64,000 nt of DNA from Candidatus Woesebacteria bacterium RIFCSPLOWO2_01_FULL_39_23 (lineage in GTDB: Bacteria > Patescibacteriota > Microgenomatia > UBA8517), in NCBI GenBank assembly GCA_001793095.1, contig MGHG01000008.1:269-64268 (forward strand). The letters run 5' to 3'. Positions 3,680 through 64,000 of the stretch are shown piece by piece. A model generated the notes under the pieces. The model worked only from the letters and a program-made list of their open reading frames with translations. It made no database searches and was not told the origin of the DNA. Every line of letters starts with the position of its first letter. Within the stretch, counting starts at the first letter, position 1. Both the position numbers and the translations under genes were made by a program.

Positions 3680-3958
3680 ATGTGGTGGTACAACTACTTA
3701 TTAAAAAGCAAAAAAGATAGTAGTTGGTATATTGGTTGTACAAACAATTTAAAGAATAGAGAAAAAATGCACAATTTAGGAAAGGTGAAATCTACAAGAA
3801 ACAGTAAACCATGGGAACTAATATACTACGAGGCCTGTAAAAACAAGATTAATGCCTTTCGAAGAGAAAGATATTTAAAAAGCGGATATGGGAGAAGATT
3901 TTTGAAAAAAAGACTGATGGAATATAACTCGGAACGTAAAGTAATTGAAAATTACTAA
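3680..3958 (+). CDS. GIY-YIG nuclease family protein, small free-standing (URI domain)
   Basis: N-terminal YNYLLKS..SWYIGCTNNLKNR..H matches the GIY-YIG motif; paralogous to the ORFs at 10410 and 41573. Confidence 0.75.
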   Translation: MWWYNYLLKSKKDSSWYIGCTNNLKNREKMHNLGKVKSTRNSKPWELIYYEACKNKINAFRRERYLKSGYGRRFLKKRLMEYNSERKVIENY

Positions 3959-10409: not shown

Positions 10410-10799
10410 TCACCTTCTCTCCCGCACCAATTTAGCTAAAGAAAGACTTCCAGATATTCGTTTCTTTAGTTCATTGAGTGCTTGTCCATAATTTTTTAAT
10501 CTATATTCACGGGTCATTGCGTCTTCTTTTGATTTATGACGTCCTCCGCGGACCAAGAGTCCGCGGTTTCCCTCTAAAGGAGGACGACATATCAAGTTCA
10601 ATTCATCTCCGGGCTGATAGCCCGGAGTTTTCTCGAAATTGCTATAACTCTCATTGTATACTAAAATCCAAGGCCCTTTTTTTCTGGTAGAGAAACTCCT
10701 GTTTGTATTATGTTCAACAATCCTTTTTTTAATATTATTTGTATAACCTATGTAAAGCTCTCCGGTAACGAAACTTACCAATATGTAAACATAATACAT
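10410..10799 (-). CDS. GIY-YIG nuclease family protein carrying a ~35-aa in-frame GC-rich palindromic insertion
   Basis: MYYVYILVS..ELYIGYTNNIKKR..H motif. Likely true start is the ATG at 10799; the track's TTG at 10826 reads through the inverted-repeat arm. Insert NFEKTPGYQPGDELNLICRPPLEGNRGLLVRGGRHK is absent from the two paralogs. Confidence 0.7.
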   Translation of the reverse strand: MYYVYILVSFVTGELYIGYTNNIKKRIVEHNTNRSFSTRKKGPWILVYNESYSNFEKTPGYQPGDELNLICRPPLEGNRGLLVRGGRHKSKEDAMTREYRLKNYGQALNELKKRISGSLSLAKLVRERR

Positions 10800-10817
10800 A
10801 GCTAATTTGGTGCGGGA
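10421..10817 (-). mobile_element. Hairpin element with ~18-bp terminal inverted repeats (TCCCGCACCAATTTAGCT / AGCTAATTTGGTGCGGGA) whose loop encodes a GIY-YIG nuclease
   Basis: Arms at 10421-10437 and 10800-10817 are near-perfect reverse complements. Same arm family as the 41553/41844 element and the three 23S rRNA insertions. Confidence 0.6.
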
Positions 10818-10829
10818 CTCTACCAAAAA

Positions 10830-41552: not shown

Positions 41553-41844
41553 CCCCGCACCTGATTCTGGCTATGCATTATGTGTATGTTATTCAGAGTA
41601 TAAAATCTTATGAAATATACATCGGCTCTACAAAGAATCTAAAATTAAGACTTGGTAAACATAATGCAAATAAGAATACATCGACAAAAAATAGAGGACC
41701 CTGGATGTTAATTTACACAGAAGTATACAGATCAAAAGACGATGCGACGGAACGGGAATTCCGTCTTAAATACTATGGACGCGCCCTGGCTCAATTAAAA
41801 AGAAGACTCGTTAGGAGTCTTTTGAAGCCAGAATAGGTGCGGGG
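41553..41844 (+). mobile_element. Hairpin element (arms CCCCGCACCTGATTCTGG / CCAGAATAGGTGCGGGG) whose loop is exactly filled by a GIY-YIG ORF
   Basis: ~17-bp inverted repeats at 41553-41570 and 41828-41844. The ATG follows arm 1 by 2 nt and the TAG stop lies within arm 2. Confidence 0.65.
41573..41836 (+). CDS. GIY-YIG nuclease family protein (87 aa)
   Basis: MHYVYVIQS..EIYIGSTKNLKLRLGKHN; inserted between tatC and tatA5. Confidence 0.75.
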   Translation: MHYVYVIQSIKSYEIYIGSTKNLKLRLGKHNANKNTSTKNRGPWMLIYTEVYRSKDDATEREFRLKYYGRALAQLKRRLVRSLLKPE

Positions 41845-59332: not shown

Positions 59333-59536
59333 ACATCATAACCACCTTTCTAGTTTAGATCCTGATTTTATAACAAATTGCTACCTATAACAAGGGATAA
59401 TTTCTCGGGTGGAGCCTAAATCCAGAACACTGTCCTGGCCACGGTACAAATCTTACTTGCTCCCGAAAACTACATGTTCGCATCGCAAGAGCAATTATAC
59501 GTGGCAGGCGGATTTTTTATAATTTCAGAATACTGT

Positions 59537-59652
59537 CCTGGCGATGAGCTATTTTCGCGGTGAGTTGCCCCACAACTATCGTCGCCGCTGATCCGTTTCA
59601 CTTCTGAGTTCGGAATGGATTCAGGTGGTACCAGACCGCTCCGATCACCAGG
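59537..59652 (-). rRNA. rrf: 5S ribosomal RNA
   Basis: Reverse complement reads CCTGGTGATCGGAGCGGTCTGGTACCACCTGAATCCATTCCGAACTCAGAAGTGAAAC...ATCGCCAGG, with terminal helix 1 pairing. Confidence 0.85.
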
Positions 59653-59995
59653 ACACTATCCTGAAACAGTAAATTTATTAAAGTCCTCCGAAACTAACCT
59701 TAAGGCTTTTCAGTACTATTCATACACGCCTTAAGGAGCGTTTACAGGAGGATTTCGGTACAAACTAATTTGTACCTCAAAAATTGAGGAGAAAGAAAAA
59801 AGTCTTACTGCAAAAATGCAGAAGATCTTTAGTATAAAGTCTTATCGACTTATTCGGATCAGGTTAGCTTAAGACATTACTGTCCTTCCACACCCTGCCG
59901 AACAACCCGTCTCGCTCTTGCGAGCCAGACGAGGTTCGCCTTGCGGCGACCTGGTATTCTTCCAGGAGTCTAAAATGAACCCTAATCTTAGGAGG

Positions 59996-60028
<33 letters not shown>

Positions 60029-60154
60029 CTTGGGAATATAGCTACCCGGCTTTGCGGCTGACGCCACAACCGGCACACCAGAGATTCCCCCATGCTGGTC
60101 CTCTCGTACTGAGCACAGCTTCCTTCAAGGTTCTACGATTCCACCGGATAGAGT

Positions 60155-60187
<33 letters not shown>

Positions 60188-60753
60188 ACGTACCACTTTA
60201 ATGGGCGAACAGACCAACCCTTGGCACCTTCTCCAGCGCCAGGATGTGGTGAGCCGACATCGAGGTAGCGATCCGCGCCGTCGCTATGGACGCTCGGGCG
60301 CGACTACTCTGTTATCCCCGGGGTAGCTTTTATCCGTTAAGCTCCAACCCTTCCATGCAGGATTGGAGGATCACTAAGACCTACTTTCGTACCTGCTTGA
60401 GCCGTCACTCTCGCAGTCAAGCTGGCTTTTGCCTTTATACATTACGCACGATGTCCATCCGTGCTAAGCCAACCTTTGTACCCTTGCGTTACTCTTTGGC
60501 AAGGTACCGCCCCAGTAAAACTGCCCACCTAACACTTTCCCTTCCCGAGTATTCATCGGGATTAGGTAAGACTTGCCACGCTCTAAAGGGAGGTGTTTCA
60601 GTGTCGCTCGCGCATAGCTCGCAAATGTCAAATTACAAAAAAGCAAATGATAAATTAGTTTCATTTAGCATTCATCTTTTTAGCATTTAGCATTTCCGTG
60701 CTACACACGGGCTCCCTCCTACTCTAAACAATTAGATCGCACAAACCAATGTT

Positions 60754-60790
<37 letters not shown>

Positions 60791-60858
60791 GTGGAATTAG
60801 GCCGCGTCTTCACAGCCAACGCAATTTCGCCGAGTAGAGGCTTGAGACAGTTGCTAAC

Positions 60859-60895
<37 letters not shown>

Positions 60896-60922
60896 GAGGG
60901 ACTTCGCTACCGTAGAACAGTT

Positions 60923-61357
60923 CAATATGTTATCCCGATCGAATCCGGGACTACGATTTTACGTAGACTGCATATTGCTATGCAGATCGGACTATATCAT
61001 CCACGTTCATGTAAACTGAACGTAGCCTAGCGTGTAGTCTCTGAGGATTCCTTCAAAAATTACTAATTGACTTAATTGCTCTAATTTCTAACAAATTATT
61101 TAATGACCAATTTCAAATGACTAAAACAAAACTTAGTTGGGTCATTCTTAAATTGGGGTTTGATTAGGTTAATTAGAAATTAGTAATTAGAAATTACTTG
61201 GAGGCCTTTCCTGCTGATTGTCCGCACTGATCGCATTGTTACCATTTTAAATGGTAGCGTCAGATACTTCAACTGTTCGTTATTTCCATTCTACTTGAAA
61301 ATCACTACAGTACGGATATTCCAGCATATAGCTAGGTTTTAGAACTACGACTATTTC
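60923..61357 (-). mobile_element. ORF-less group I intron in 23S rRNA at the L1917-1923-type site (between GUAACUAU and AACUGUUCUACGGUAGCG)
   Basis: 5' exon ends in U and pairs with the internal guide GUAGUU (U.G at the splice site); intron ends in G. Core elements present: Q-like AATCAGCAGG, R TCAGAGACTACACG, S GATATAGTCCG. Confidence 0.7.
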
Positions 61358-61606
61358 ATAGTTACTGCTGCCGTTTACCGGAGCTTGACATTGCTGCGCT
61401 TCGCGCAAAAAAGCCAAATTATAAAAAACAAAATGATAAATTAAATTCATTTAGCATTTGCCTTTTGGTCATTTAACATTCTTTGTGCGAAGCACAACGC
61501 CGCTTAACTTACCGGCACTGGGCAGGCGTCAGCCCGTATACTTTGCCTTTCAGCTTTGCACGGACCTGTGTTTTTGATAAACAGTCGGTTAGCAAACATT
61601 TGCTGC

Positions 61607-61743
61607 GCCCCGCACCAATTTAGCAGCTGATTCTCCAAAATATGAATCCTACTTATATAAAACTTAAGTAATATTATTCAAGTTAAATATAAAATAAGAC
61701 TCAAATTCGAATCAGTAATATTTTCTGCTAAATTGGTGCGGGG
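61607..61743 (-). repeat. 23S rRNA intervening sequence 1 (helix-63 region): 19-bp perfect stem GCCCCGCACCAATTTAGCAG / CTGCTAAATTGGTGCGGGG with ~98-nt AT-rich loop
   Basis: Inserted at the tip of a native helix; arms share the TIR family of the GIY-YIG elements. Confidence 0.7.
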
Positions 61744-62120
61744 AGGATATCTTCCGAAGTTACATCCAGCTTTTTTGCCGAGTTCCTTAAACCTCTTTCT
61801 CTCGCTCGCCTTACTATTCTCTAGCTGCCCACCTGTGTTGGTTTGCGGTACGACTTGATTTAGATCTCGCTGCGAACCTTTTCTTGTAGACAGAATGGGA
61901 TAAAATTGCCCCAATCTCTTAGGGCTCTGCATTGCTGCTTGATTAATCGTTTCAGCGGATTTTCCAACTGACCCTATCTAACAGCTTACACCCCGATATC
62001 ACATCGGGACTTTAATCATCCTATCCAGTCAATCCCCAGCTCCACGTTCAGTACTTGCGCATGAACGTGGTGGGCGATCTAAAACAAATAGTGGAATTTT
62101 AACCACTCATCCATCGACTA

Positions 62121-62258
62121 CCCCCGCACCAAAATGGCATCTTATTTTCCAAAATATGAATCTTACTCTTAATAATCACTAAACTATATTCTTCAAATAA
62201 ATTATTAAGGTTAATCTGATCCAATTAAGGTAATATTTTATGCCACTTAGGTGCGGGG
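62121..62258 (-). repeat. 23S rRNA intervening sequence 2 (helix-45 site): stem CCCCCGCACCAAAATGGCAT / ATGCCACTTAGGTGCGGGG
   Basis: Replaces the E. coli GAGGCC-GAAA-GGC tetraloop hairpin; ~100-nt AT-rich loop shares TCCAAAATATGAATC with IVS 1. Confidence 0.7.
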
Positions 62259-62636
62259 CTCATCTTAGGTATCGACTAACCCGTCGTGGACGAACCTAGC
62301 GACGGAAACCTTGGGCTTACGGCGTCCCAGATTCTCACTGGGATTGTACGCTACTCATACCGGCATTCTCACTTCCGTACCTTCCACTCCGCCTCACGGC
62401 GAAGCTTCACTGGATACGGAACGCTCCCCTACCACACCCGCTCGCAGAGCGGGAATGACCAATTTCCAATGGCAAATAACCAATGTATTATTAGAAGCCA
62501 TATTTAAACTTACTGCTTCTTTTACATTTAGCATTTATCATTTAGCATTTATCATTCCTGTTCTACGAACAGGTATCTCTAGCTTCGGCACGCAACTTAT
62601 CCTCGATAAATTTTAGGCGCCTGCTTCCATCGACCA

Positions 62637-62693
<57 letters not shown>

Positions 62694-63204
62694 TTACGGA
62701 AACCGACTTCCTTTCAAACTTAGCTGCGATTTAGAGGCCTTAGCCGAGAGTCTGGGTTGTTTCCCTTTGGACGCATCAGCTTAGCCCGATGCGACTGTCT
62801 AGTACGTTGTTATATATTGTTATTCGGAGTTTGGTTGAATGAAATTGCTTGCGCTCTCTCATCCATCCAGTATCTCTACCATCAATATACTTTTCGTACC
62901 ACGGTCCCTATAGACCTTTCGGGGAGAACCAGCTATCTCCAGGCTCGGTTGGCATATTACCACTATCCACAAGTCATCCCACGTTATTGCAACAACGACG
63001 GGTTCGGGCCTCCTTCCAATCTTCATCGGAATTCACCCTGCTCATGGCTAGATCGCCTGGTTTCGGGTCGGCCATCAGATACTCGTTACCAAAAGGTAAC
63101 ACGCGCTATTCGCACTCGGTTTCCCTTCACCTCCACCCGTTTAAGGGTTTAGATAGTTATCTAACGGCCACTCGCCGGCTCATTCTTCAATAGGCACGAT
63201 ATCA

Positions 63205-63341
63205 CCCCGCACCAAGTTGGCAGAAAATATTTCATTGATTTGAATGTTAACATTAACTAAACTTTAAGTTTATTGAAAGTTTAAACAATAAATAAACTCA
63301 TGTCTCATATTTTGAAAATCAGCTGCCAATTTGGTGCGGGG
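63205..63341 (-). repeat. 23S rRNA intervening sequence 3 (helix-25 site): stem CCCCGCACCAAGTTGGCAG / CTGCCAATTTGGTGCGGGG
   Basis: Classic IVS position (helix 25); one G.U in an otherwise perfect 19-bp stem. Confidence 0.7.
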
Positions 63342-63406
63342 CTCTATCGGTTTGTCCGCAAACAGTTTCAGGTTCTATTTCACTGGGCGTCTCGCCCTTC
63401 TTTTCG

Positions 63407-63438
<32 letters not shown>

Positions 63439-63661
63439 ATCTACCTATATTTAGCCTTGGAGGATGGTTCCCCCAGCTTCCCACGGTGTAGATGCACCGT
63501 GGTACTTGGGATATTCCTAAGATTCTTTATAAATTTTGTATACAAGACTTTCACTTTCTATGGTGTACCATTCCAGATACTTCTACTATTCATAAAGAAC
63601 CCATATTGGAATCCCGCAACCCTGCGCCCATATTCTTGCGAATATGGGGCAGTTTAGGCTA

Positions 63662-63693
<32 letters not shown>

Positions 63694-64000
63694 TCTCGTT
63701 TGATTTATTTTCCTCACCCTACTTAGATGTTTCAGTTCGGGCGGTCTCCCCCGCTACGGTTATACCCCGACAAGTCGGGATTTTTACCATAGGGTAACCA
63801 AATATAATTATGGTTGGGTTTCCCCATTCGGACACCGTCGGATCAATGGATCGTGGCTCCTCCCCGGCGATTATCGCAACCATGTGCGTCCTTCTTCGGT
63901 AGGTAAATCCTAGGCATTCACTGTCTGCGTTAGTAAAGACTTCAATTACGTTCCTGTACGACCCCGCAATAAAGCGAGATATTACAGGAAACGGCCTTTC

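Follow-up and report, generated by a model that had tools for sequence, protein, structure and literature searches.

The host of the 64,000-nt stretch of DNA analyzed here (hereafter, the window) is a Candidatus Woesebacteria bacterium of the Microgenomates group of CPR, and proteins of adjacent genes bear the name Candidatus Woesebacteria bacterium (RBG_16_40_11 and others) in NCBI and UniRef. The 23S rRNA gene of this host is followed by a 5S rRNA gene and spans 4112 nt, as compared with 2904 nt in E. coli. Alignment by MAFFT (against E. coli rrlH, L001) located one 435-nt insertion directly after E. coli U1917, a position within the helix-69 loop, and the same 435-nt gap separated GUAACUAU and ACUGUUCUACGGUAGCG in the Rfam LSU alignment. 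The features of the locus are as follows.

59833 to 63944, minus strand: 23S rRNA gene (Rfam RF02541 LSU_rRNA_bacteria, 2210.8 bits, full-length model 1–2925)
59536 to 59652: 5S rRNA (Rfam), downstream of the 23S gene
60923 to 61357, minus strand: insertion of 435 nt, assigned to the group I introns (5′ end, G at 61357; omega-G at 60923)

On the minus strand, the 5′ junction (slash) was ...GCAGCAGUAACUAU/GAAAUAGUCGUAGUUC..., in which the last base of the 5′ exon is U (61358), and the 3′ junction was ...GGGAUAACAUAUUG/AACUGUUCUACGGUAGCG, in which the last base of the insert is G (60923). The first-pass annotation of this DNA had described a 435-nt insertion splitting a conserved 23S region of a CPR bacterium at the L1917–1923 hotspot, between an exon ending in U and an intron ending in G. 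Both alignments, the junction bases, and the identity of the host bore out this description, and its sequence-level statements held, with the gene located on the minus strand. The site is exactly L1917 according to MAFFT, the Rfam LSU alignment, and an empty site described below. The helix-69 stem of the host is unusual (AGCAG...CUGUU vs GGCCG...CGGUC in E. coli). Because both of the pairs that differ from E. coli are compensatory changes, helix 69 would be intact after removal of the intron.

The Rfam model Intron_gpI (RF00028) matched the insertion over the whole model with 46.2 bits (E 1.5e-10), and the P3, P4, P5, P6, P8, P9, R, and S elements were aligned with high posterior probability; the covariance-model search suggested in the first-pass annotation thus returned a significant match. 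The score dropped to 38.1 bits with the intron alone as input. Since both scores are under the Rfam gathering score of 50 (the former by 3.8 bits), the intron is unlisted in gathering mode. This shortfall is explained by two long peripheral insertions, in P5 and P6, and three compact homologues of the intron scored 66.7, 58.3, and 55.4 bits, all above the gathering score. The minimum-free-energy (MFE) fold recovered P3, P4/P5, P8, and P9 to P9.2 (z = −4.96), and models of group II domains V/VI showed no match in the region at E up to 10. The parts of the predicted ribozyme, in 5′ to 3′ order on the minus strand, are listed below.

61358 to 61363, minus strand: 5′ exon strand of P1, AACUAU, ending in U1917 and pairing with GUAGUU
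61350 to 61355, minus strand: intron strand of P10, AAUAGU, forming 6 bp with ACUGUU of the 3′ exon (60916 to 60921)
61343 to 61348, minus strand: internal guide sequence GUAGUU, the 3′ strand of the 6-bp P1
61331 to 61336, minus strand: 5′ strand of P3, CCUAGC (partner GCUAGG at 61026 to 61031; compensatory changes in 5/6 pairs)
61212 to 61326, minus strand: P4–P5 domain (P4, UGCUGG/UCAGCA; P5, UCCGUA/UGCGGA)
61273 to 61310, minus strand: extra hairpin between P5 and P5a, common to L133, L150, L157, L171, and L203
61227 to 61263, minus strand: P5a/P5b arm with the A-rich bulge ACAAU
61045 to 61211, minus strand: P6, consisting of a proximal (GGA/UCC) and a distal (CCUCCAA/UUGAAGG) helix around an insertion
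61057 to 61197, minus strand: AT-rich hairpin of 141 nt (23% GC), filling the P6 loop where relatives carry a LAGLIDADG_1 gene
61033 to 61044, minus strand: R element UCAGAGACUACA, including the 5′ strand of P7, GAGACUA (61035 to 61041)
61001 to 61025, minus strand: P8 hairpin (compensatory changes in 7/7 counted pairs)
60989 to 60998, minus strand: S element GAUAUAGUCC, including the 3′ strand of P7, UAGUCC (60989 to 60994)
60968 to 60985, minus strand: P9 hairpin with a GCAA (GNRA) tetraloop (compensatory changes in 6/7 pairs; 100% of cells paired)
60951 to 60966, minus strand: P9.1 hairpin (MFE fold; covarying equivalents in relatives by RNAalifold)
60933 to 60950, minus strand: P9.2 hairpin (MFE fold; covarying equivalents in relatives by RNAalifold)
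60923 to 60932, minus strand: 3′ tail UAACAUAUUG, ending in omega-G, with a UAACA motif conserved across the family

The pairing of the GUAGUU guide with the 5′ exon, already proposed in the earlier annotation, was found as stated: AACUAU is complementary to the guide, the pair at the junction being U.G, and this U.G pair at the splice site was found in 27/27 homologues. The core elements named there were likewise present (TCAGAGACTACA at 61033 to 61044 and GATATAGTCC at 60989 to 60998). P2 is absent; CUAAAA directly follows P1 and is succeeded by P3. Across the family, P4 was invariant, compensatory changes were found in 7/7 pairs of P5a and in 7/7 pairs of distal P6, and P7 was paired in 99.4% of cells with compensatory changes in two pairs. 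Distal P6 of the window intron contains one C-A mismatch. The extra P5 hairpin is not unique to the window intron and marks a CPR sub-lineage that includes the five members given in the list. The 3′ tail, (G)UAACA-N3-5-G, was conserved across phyla and repeats GUAAC of the 5′ exon. RNAalifold paired AAC of the tail with GUU of the guide; these columns are invariant, so that covariation is silent either way. The conserved tail might serve the excised intron as a mimic of the 5′ exon.

Homologues were collected by one genome scan and one metagenome scan with exon-junction patterns. The matches listed for the genome-scan pattern (AAACGGCNGCNGTAACTATB) comprised at least 119 loci and do not represent a census; among these listed matches, about 26 of 119 loci carried real L1917 insertions. 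Most of the others were rejected as intron-less Planctomycetota and Spirochaetota, in which the 23S sequence reads GACGG after U1917. Among the matches listed, the loci of these two phyla mostly had G, not A, at 23S position 1918, and no intron. The metagenome pattern also matched unrelated protein-coding sequence, which was discarded. The two scans combined yielded at least ~90 homologous L1917 introns. All of these introns, among the matches listed, shared the motif order GUAGUU-N-UAAAA-P3-UAUAUGCUGGAA ... CAAUCAGCAGGAAAG ... CCUCAGAGACUAUACG ... GAUGAUAUAGUCCG ... GUAACA-N3-5-G. The hosts of these introns, among the matches listed, included many CPR metagenome contigs, as well as Levyibacteriota, Dormibacteraeota, Solirubrobacterales/Thermoleophilia, Nitrospira, Acidobacteriota, Gemmatimonadota, Planctomycetota, and candidate division TM6. 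Several of these genes contained extra introns a short way downstream (following GGTAG, GGT, or a similar sequence; L1923–L1931 range), often adjoining the L1917 intron (e.g., L044, L002, L014, L068, and L099).

The predicted fold was compared with covariation among these homologues. RNAalifold applied to 13 ORF-less members, with no prior structure, returned P3, P4, P5, P5a, P6, P8, P9, P9.1, and P9.2, and compensatory changes were found in 42/63 pairs. We also scored an alignment of 27 ORF-less members, each with 10 nt of both exons, against a P1–P10 structure that includes the P7 pseudoknot. In this alignment, 91.8% of the cells were paired, as compared with 33–43% in controls in which the partners were slid by 1–3 columns; 44/87 pairs had changed on both sides, and 0/500 shuffles reached the observed values. 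P3, P5a, distal P6, P8, and P9 covaried at nearly all pairs. The window intron retained 71/71 of the positions that are invariant in the 26 other members and 30/32 of the positions conserved at ≥90%; one of the two departures converts the L9 tetraloop from GCGA to GCAA, which is still GNRA.

Covariation extended to the exon. P10 of the window intron forms 6 bp with its own exon and 3 bp with the standard bacterial exon. The P10 columns at the two variable exon positions covaried among the 27 members (AU:11/CG:10 and AU:14/GC:5), and, among the matches listed, 27/33 introns with a CPR-type exon paired better with their own exon type. The fit of P10 to the unusual exon of the host, together with this covariation in the family, indicated that the intron is adapted to its host gene. 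The comparative data therefore supported assignment of the insertion as a group I intron at L1917, with both the fold and the exact splice sites backed by comparison of sequences. We consider it very probable that the element is a self-splicing, IC1-like, and gene-less group I intron of the L1917 lineage, located in the single 23S gene of its host.

The absence of a gene sets this intron apart from many of its relatives. The ORFs that overlap the intron, on either strand, do not exceed 56 aa, and no LAGLIDADG remnant was detected in the P6 loop; the insertion is thus ORF-less, as first annotated. Among the matches listed, family members of 600–825 nt held a frame of 145–243 codons, which was always located between P4′ and P7, i.e., in the P6 loop, and four representative ORFs were identified as LAGLIDADG_1 (Pfam, E 1e-13 to 1e-22). 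When ~45 endonucleases of the family were searched by tblastn against the 23S region of the window, the sole match was an N-terminal leader overlapping the P5–P6 core, corresponding to the following frame.

61180 to 61272, minus strand: 30-aa open frame MKYLTLPFKMVTMRSVRTISRKGLQVISNY, the counterpart of the N-terminal leader seen in endonuclease ORFs of relatives

This frame had no Pfam match, shares its sequence in part with the ribozyme core, and does not constitute a gene in the window intron. ORF-less members were common among the matches listed, and hence a missing LAGLIDADG_1 gene does not exclude membership in the L1917 lineage. The ribozymes of one gene-less intron (L133, 275 nt) and one gene-bearing intron (L150, 718 nt) were 86% identical, and the nearest cores to that of the window intron among the matches listed (L157 and L203; 82–85% identity over nt 10–156) both belong to introns carrying the gene.

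In place of the gene, the P6 loop contains the 141-nt insert, which is predicted to form a long imperfect hairpin extending P6 (−35.1 kcal/mol, z −3.3). The insert showed 72% identity over 144 nt (64.4 bits) to a segment of another CPR organism's 23S gene (L179:4231–4361), whereas the best matches of 300 dinucleotide shuffles of the insert had a mean of 32.1 bits and a maximum of 41.9 bits. The L179 segment represents 140 nt inserted after E. coli position 2133, in the helix 78 region, and lies outside the L1917 intron of that gene. No further copies of the insert were found in the 64-kb window, and its similarity to the helix-45 insertion of the same 23S gene was limited to an 18-nt match. 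Because the similarity to the L179 IVS was far above that of the shuffled sequences, the P6 loop seems, on sequence grounds, to hold an IVS-type hairpin and not gene debris. That the insert is instead what remains of a decayed LAGLIDADG gene, and not an independently acquired IVS-like hairpin, appears unlikely to us: the insert occupies the exact position of the endonuclease gene, and degenerate ORFs with large deletions are reported for CPR rRNA insertions in a CPR survey (PMC11270868), but the palindromic nature of the hairpin, the lack of any tblastn match within it to the ~45 endonucleases, and its resemblance to the CPR helix-78 IVS argue against this origin. The IVS-type hairpin shares with RNase III-processed 23S IVSs its AT richness, its length, and its relationship to a CPR helix-78 IVS; it differs in being located inside an intron loop instead of an rRNA helix, and for this reason would leave together with the intron.

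The 23S gene contains six further AT-rich, IVS-like insertions of roughly 70–140 nt with respect to E. coli. The first-pass annotation had counted three IVSs, a number that is too low, and the six insertions fall into two repeat families, listed below as A and B.

61608 to 61743: family A copy, after E. coli ~1700–1749
62122 to 62258: family A copy, after E. coli ~1367
63205 to 63341: family A copy, inverted, after E. coli ~540–550
60610 to 60694: family B copy, helix 78 region
61396 to 61480: family B copy, helix 68 region
about 62522 to 62573: family B partial copy, helix 45 region
10410 to 10826, minus strand: GIY-YIG ORF outside the rRNA genes (Pfam PF01541, E 1.2e-11)

Family A copies are ~137 nt in length and 71–73% identical, and are bounded by 19-nt terminal inverted repeats of the form CCCCGCACCAA..GCAG (repeat sequence, CCCCGCACCAAnnTnGCAG). 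In family B, two copies share 78% identity over 85 nt, and all five occurrences of the motif TCATTTAGCATTT are within the rRNA gene. The inverted repeat of family A also tightly flanks the GIY-YIG gene outside the rRNA (10420 to 10817; 19 nt, 95% complementary); eight inverted-repeat matches were found as compared with 0.07 expected by chance, and the same inverted repeats were present in another CPR contig (L145 and L163). A search of near-identical strains for an empty site of the GIY-YIG cassette found none, all of them carrying the cassette. Other small GIY-YIG paralogues are encoded on the plus strand at 41573 to 41821 and 3683 to 3844 (36–43% identity to the cassette protein), and no such inverted repeats were found around these two paralogues in the window. 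A GIY-YIG homologue was also observed in an rRNA spacer beside a tRNA-like sequence (L161:5427–5588). Outside the rRNA, a plus-strand gene at ~13221 to 13650 matches 23S_rRNA_IVP (PF05635) and bAvd (PF22296) in Pfam, a family that occurs in rRNA intervening sequences and diversity-generating retroelements.

GIY-YIG genes are reported solely from non-intron rRNA insertions in the CPR survey (Tsurumaki 2024, PMC11270868), and on this basis the family A IVSs may be miniature derivatives of the cassette; a word search of the survey gave no sign that repeat families are covered there. We tentatively propose, as a possibility that we regard as rather doubtful at present, that the P6 hairpin is a copy of a mobile IVS-type element, also present in helix 78 of the L179 gene, and that CPR IVSs are MITE-like DNA elements, perhaps mobilized by a GIY-YIG nuclease. 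The grouping of the six IVS-like insertions into two repeat families and the 19-nt inverted repeats common to family A and the GIY-YIG cassette would be in line with this proposal. If so, MITE-like IVSs would colonize hairpin loops of genes for structured RNAs, including a loop of a ribozyme.

Splicing of the intron is predicted to follow the group I pathway. In the pre-rRNA, GUAGUU and the exon sequence AACUAU would form P1 and set the U.G pair at U1917, after which a free guanosine bound in P7 would attack following U1917. The 3′ exon would be aligned by P10 (AAUAGU with ACUGUU), and the 3′-OH of U1917 would attack after the terminal G (60923). Exon ligation would restore the helix-69 loop GUAACUAUAACUGUUC, with the expected junction GUAACUAU-AACUGUUC (in context, ...GCAGCAGUAACUAU-AACUGUUCUACGG...). 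In relatives, the single-domain LAGLIDADG_1 homing endonuclease encoded in the P6 loop is expected to spread the intron into empty L1917 sites. The window copy appears to have lost this gene completely and, therefore, would not be autonomously mobile; it was probably inherited vertically or mobilized in trans. The 141-nt P6 insertion and the C-A mismatch in distal P6 could slow folding.

A good core is no guarantee of splicing: in Simkania, a group I intron of the rRNA is reported to stay unspliced. Loss of the gene and the foreign hairpin in P6 could signal decay, the Rfam score is under the gathering cut-off, and the six IVS-like insertions of the same gene are probably processed by cleavage; such observations would fit a relic unable to splice, either kept in the mature 23S rRNA or cleaved out without ligation; in both cases, helix 69 would end up fragmented or expanded. 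We regard this outcome as highly improbable, because all 71 family-invariant nucleotides are retained, P1, P10, P7, and omega-G are intact, and P10 is adapted to the host exon. Moreover, the intersubunit bridge formed by the helix-69 loop is essential, and a single rRNA operon is usual in CPR genomes according to the survey (PMC11270868), so that an insert left in place would be strongly selected against. The intron is thus almost certainly competent for splicing, although we infer both catalysis and splicing in vivo from sequence features. An ordinary RNase III-type IVS or expansion segment, a reading suggested by the abundance of such insertions in this 23S gene, was rejected as having hardly any probability, since it is contradicted by the covariance-model and covariation results, which reveal a significant, covarying group I core, by the location in a universally conserved loop and not at a variable helix tip, and by the homology to introns carrying LAGLIDADG genes.

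The site is polymorphic in related populations. One contig (L243; ENA ERZ27254791 k141_943805) contained the uninterrupted junction GTAACTAT/AACTGTTC (in context, ...CAGCAGTAACTAT-AACTGTTCTACGG...; intron-less site, CAGCAGTAACTATAACTGTTCTACGG). It is 99.9% identical to the window over 5.4 kb downstream, and its first 356 nt are only ~92% identical to the window exons. Because of this lower identity, the empty site may belong to another strain or to a chimera: L243 is either the allele of a related strain or a recombinant, or a chimeric assembly. Whichever its origin, its empty site has the boundaries predicted by group I rules. Positions 1–420 of this contig, compared with 60480 to 61520 of the window, lack the helix-78 insertion in addition to the L1917 intron. 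The intron itself was 100% identical in an NCBI MAG contig (GCA_001792375.1, MGGL01000014.1), an ENA assembly, and a JGI metagenome contig. These identical loci, together with the fit of P10 to the host exon variant, leave a negligible chance that the intron was joined to this gene from another organism by an assembly artefact or chimera, although chimeras arise readily in the assembly of rRNA regions and L243 may be one example. The position, boundaries, fold, homology, lack of an ORF, and site polymorphism of the intron are established by our analysis.

With a score just under the Rfam gathering cut-off, the intron is missed by standard pipelines, in whose output the 23S gene would be too long or split; from the present coordinates, the mature rRNA can be reconstructed. 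The locus adds a well-resolved case of the gain-and-loss cycle of homing endonucleases in CPR rRNA introns, with gene-bearing sisters, gene-less sisters, and an empty site all from related populations, and suggests that a vacated P6 loop can take up an IVS-like hairpin. The current picture of CPR rRNA genes is unchanged by the window intron, and the IVS repeat families tied to the GIY-YIG cassette are the sole lead with a wider reach.

Finally, we compared the window intron with known systems. It resembles the IC1 intron of the Tetrahymena LSU rRNA in several respects: P1 contains a U.G pair, the guanosine site in P7 has a bulged A, the R and S elements are near-identical, the P5abc-like arm bears an A-rich bulge, and splicing is predicted here to proceed by two-step transesterification initiated by guanosine. 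The window intron differs in its site (L1925 in Tetrahymena), in its lack of P2 and P2.1, and in its bacterial host. Coxiella burnetii reportedly carries a self-splicing group I intron at the same position, Cbu.L1917, in a 23S gene that also contains an IVS (described by Raghavan et al. in 2007), and one of the two Coxiella introns is said to be without the canonical omega-G, which is present in the window intron. The L1917 introns known from Synechococcus sp. C9 and Thermotoga subterranea are described as IC1-like introns in which P5 is complex, P2 is missing, and a LAGLIDADG ORF starts in P6 (Haugen 2007, PMC1995217), and by this description they agree with the window intron in site and architecture. 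They are 743–774 nt in length with a full-length endonuclease gene (PMC1995217), whereas the window intron spans 435 nt, has no such gene, and carries the P6 hairpin as well as a further hairpin in P5.

The closest parallels are found in CPR bacteria. In the survey of 348 CPR 23S genes, 82% of the genes contained insertions, group I introns accounted for 45% of the insertions, and position 1917 was a recurrent site (23IS6) associated with LAGLIDADG_1; 222 ORF-less group I introns were counted, and loss of the ORF from otherwise near-identical insertions was noted (Tsurumaki 2024, PMC11270868). Documentation of CPR introns at position 1917 in this survey agrees with the initial expectation that the insertion fits the intron-rich rRNA of CPR bacteria. 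The window intron shares with the 23IS6 introns (PMC11270868) its host clade, site, and intron class, as well as relatives with a single-domain LAGLIDADG_1 protein, and differs in that its P6 contains an AT-rich, IVS-like hairpin instead of an endonuclease gene. Introns at position 1917 of CPR 23S genes, ORF-less forms among them, are therefore already known (Tsurumaki 2024; Haugen 2007), and nothing about the window intron is unusual for this clade apart from the IVS-like hairpin in P6.
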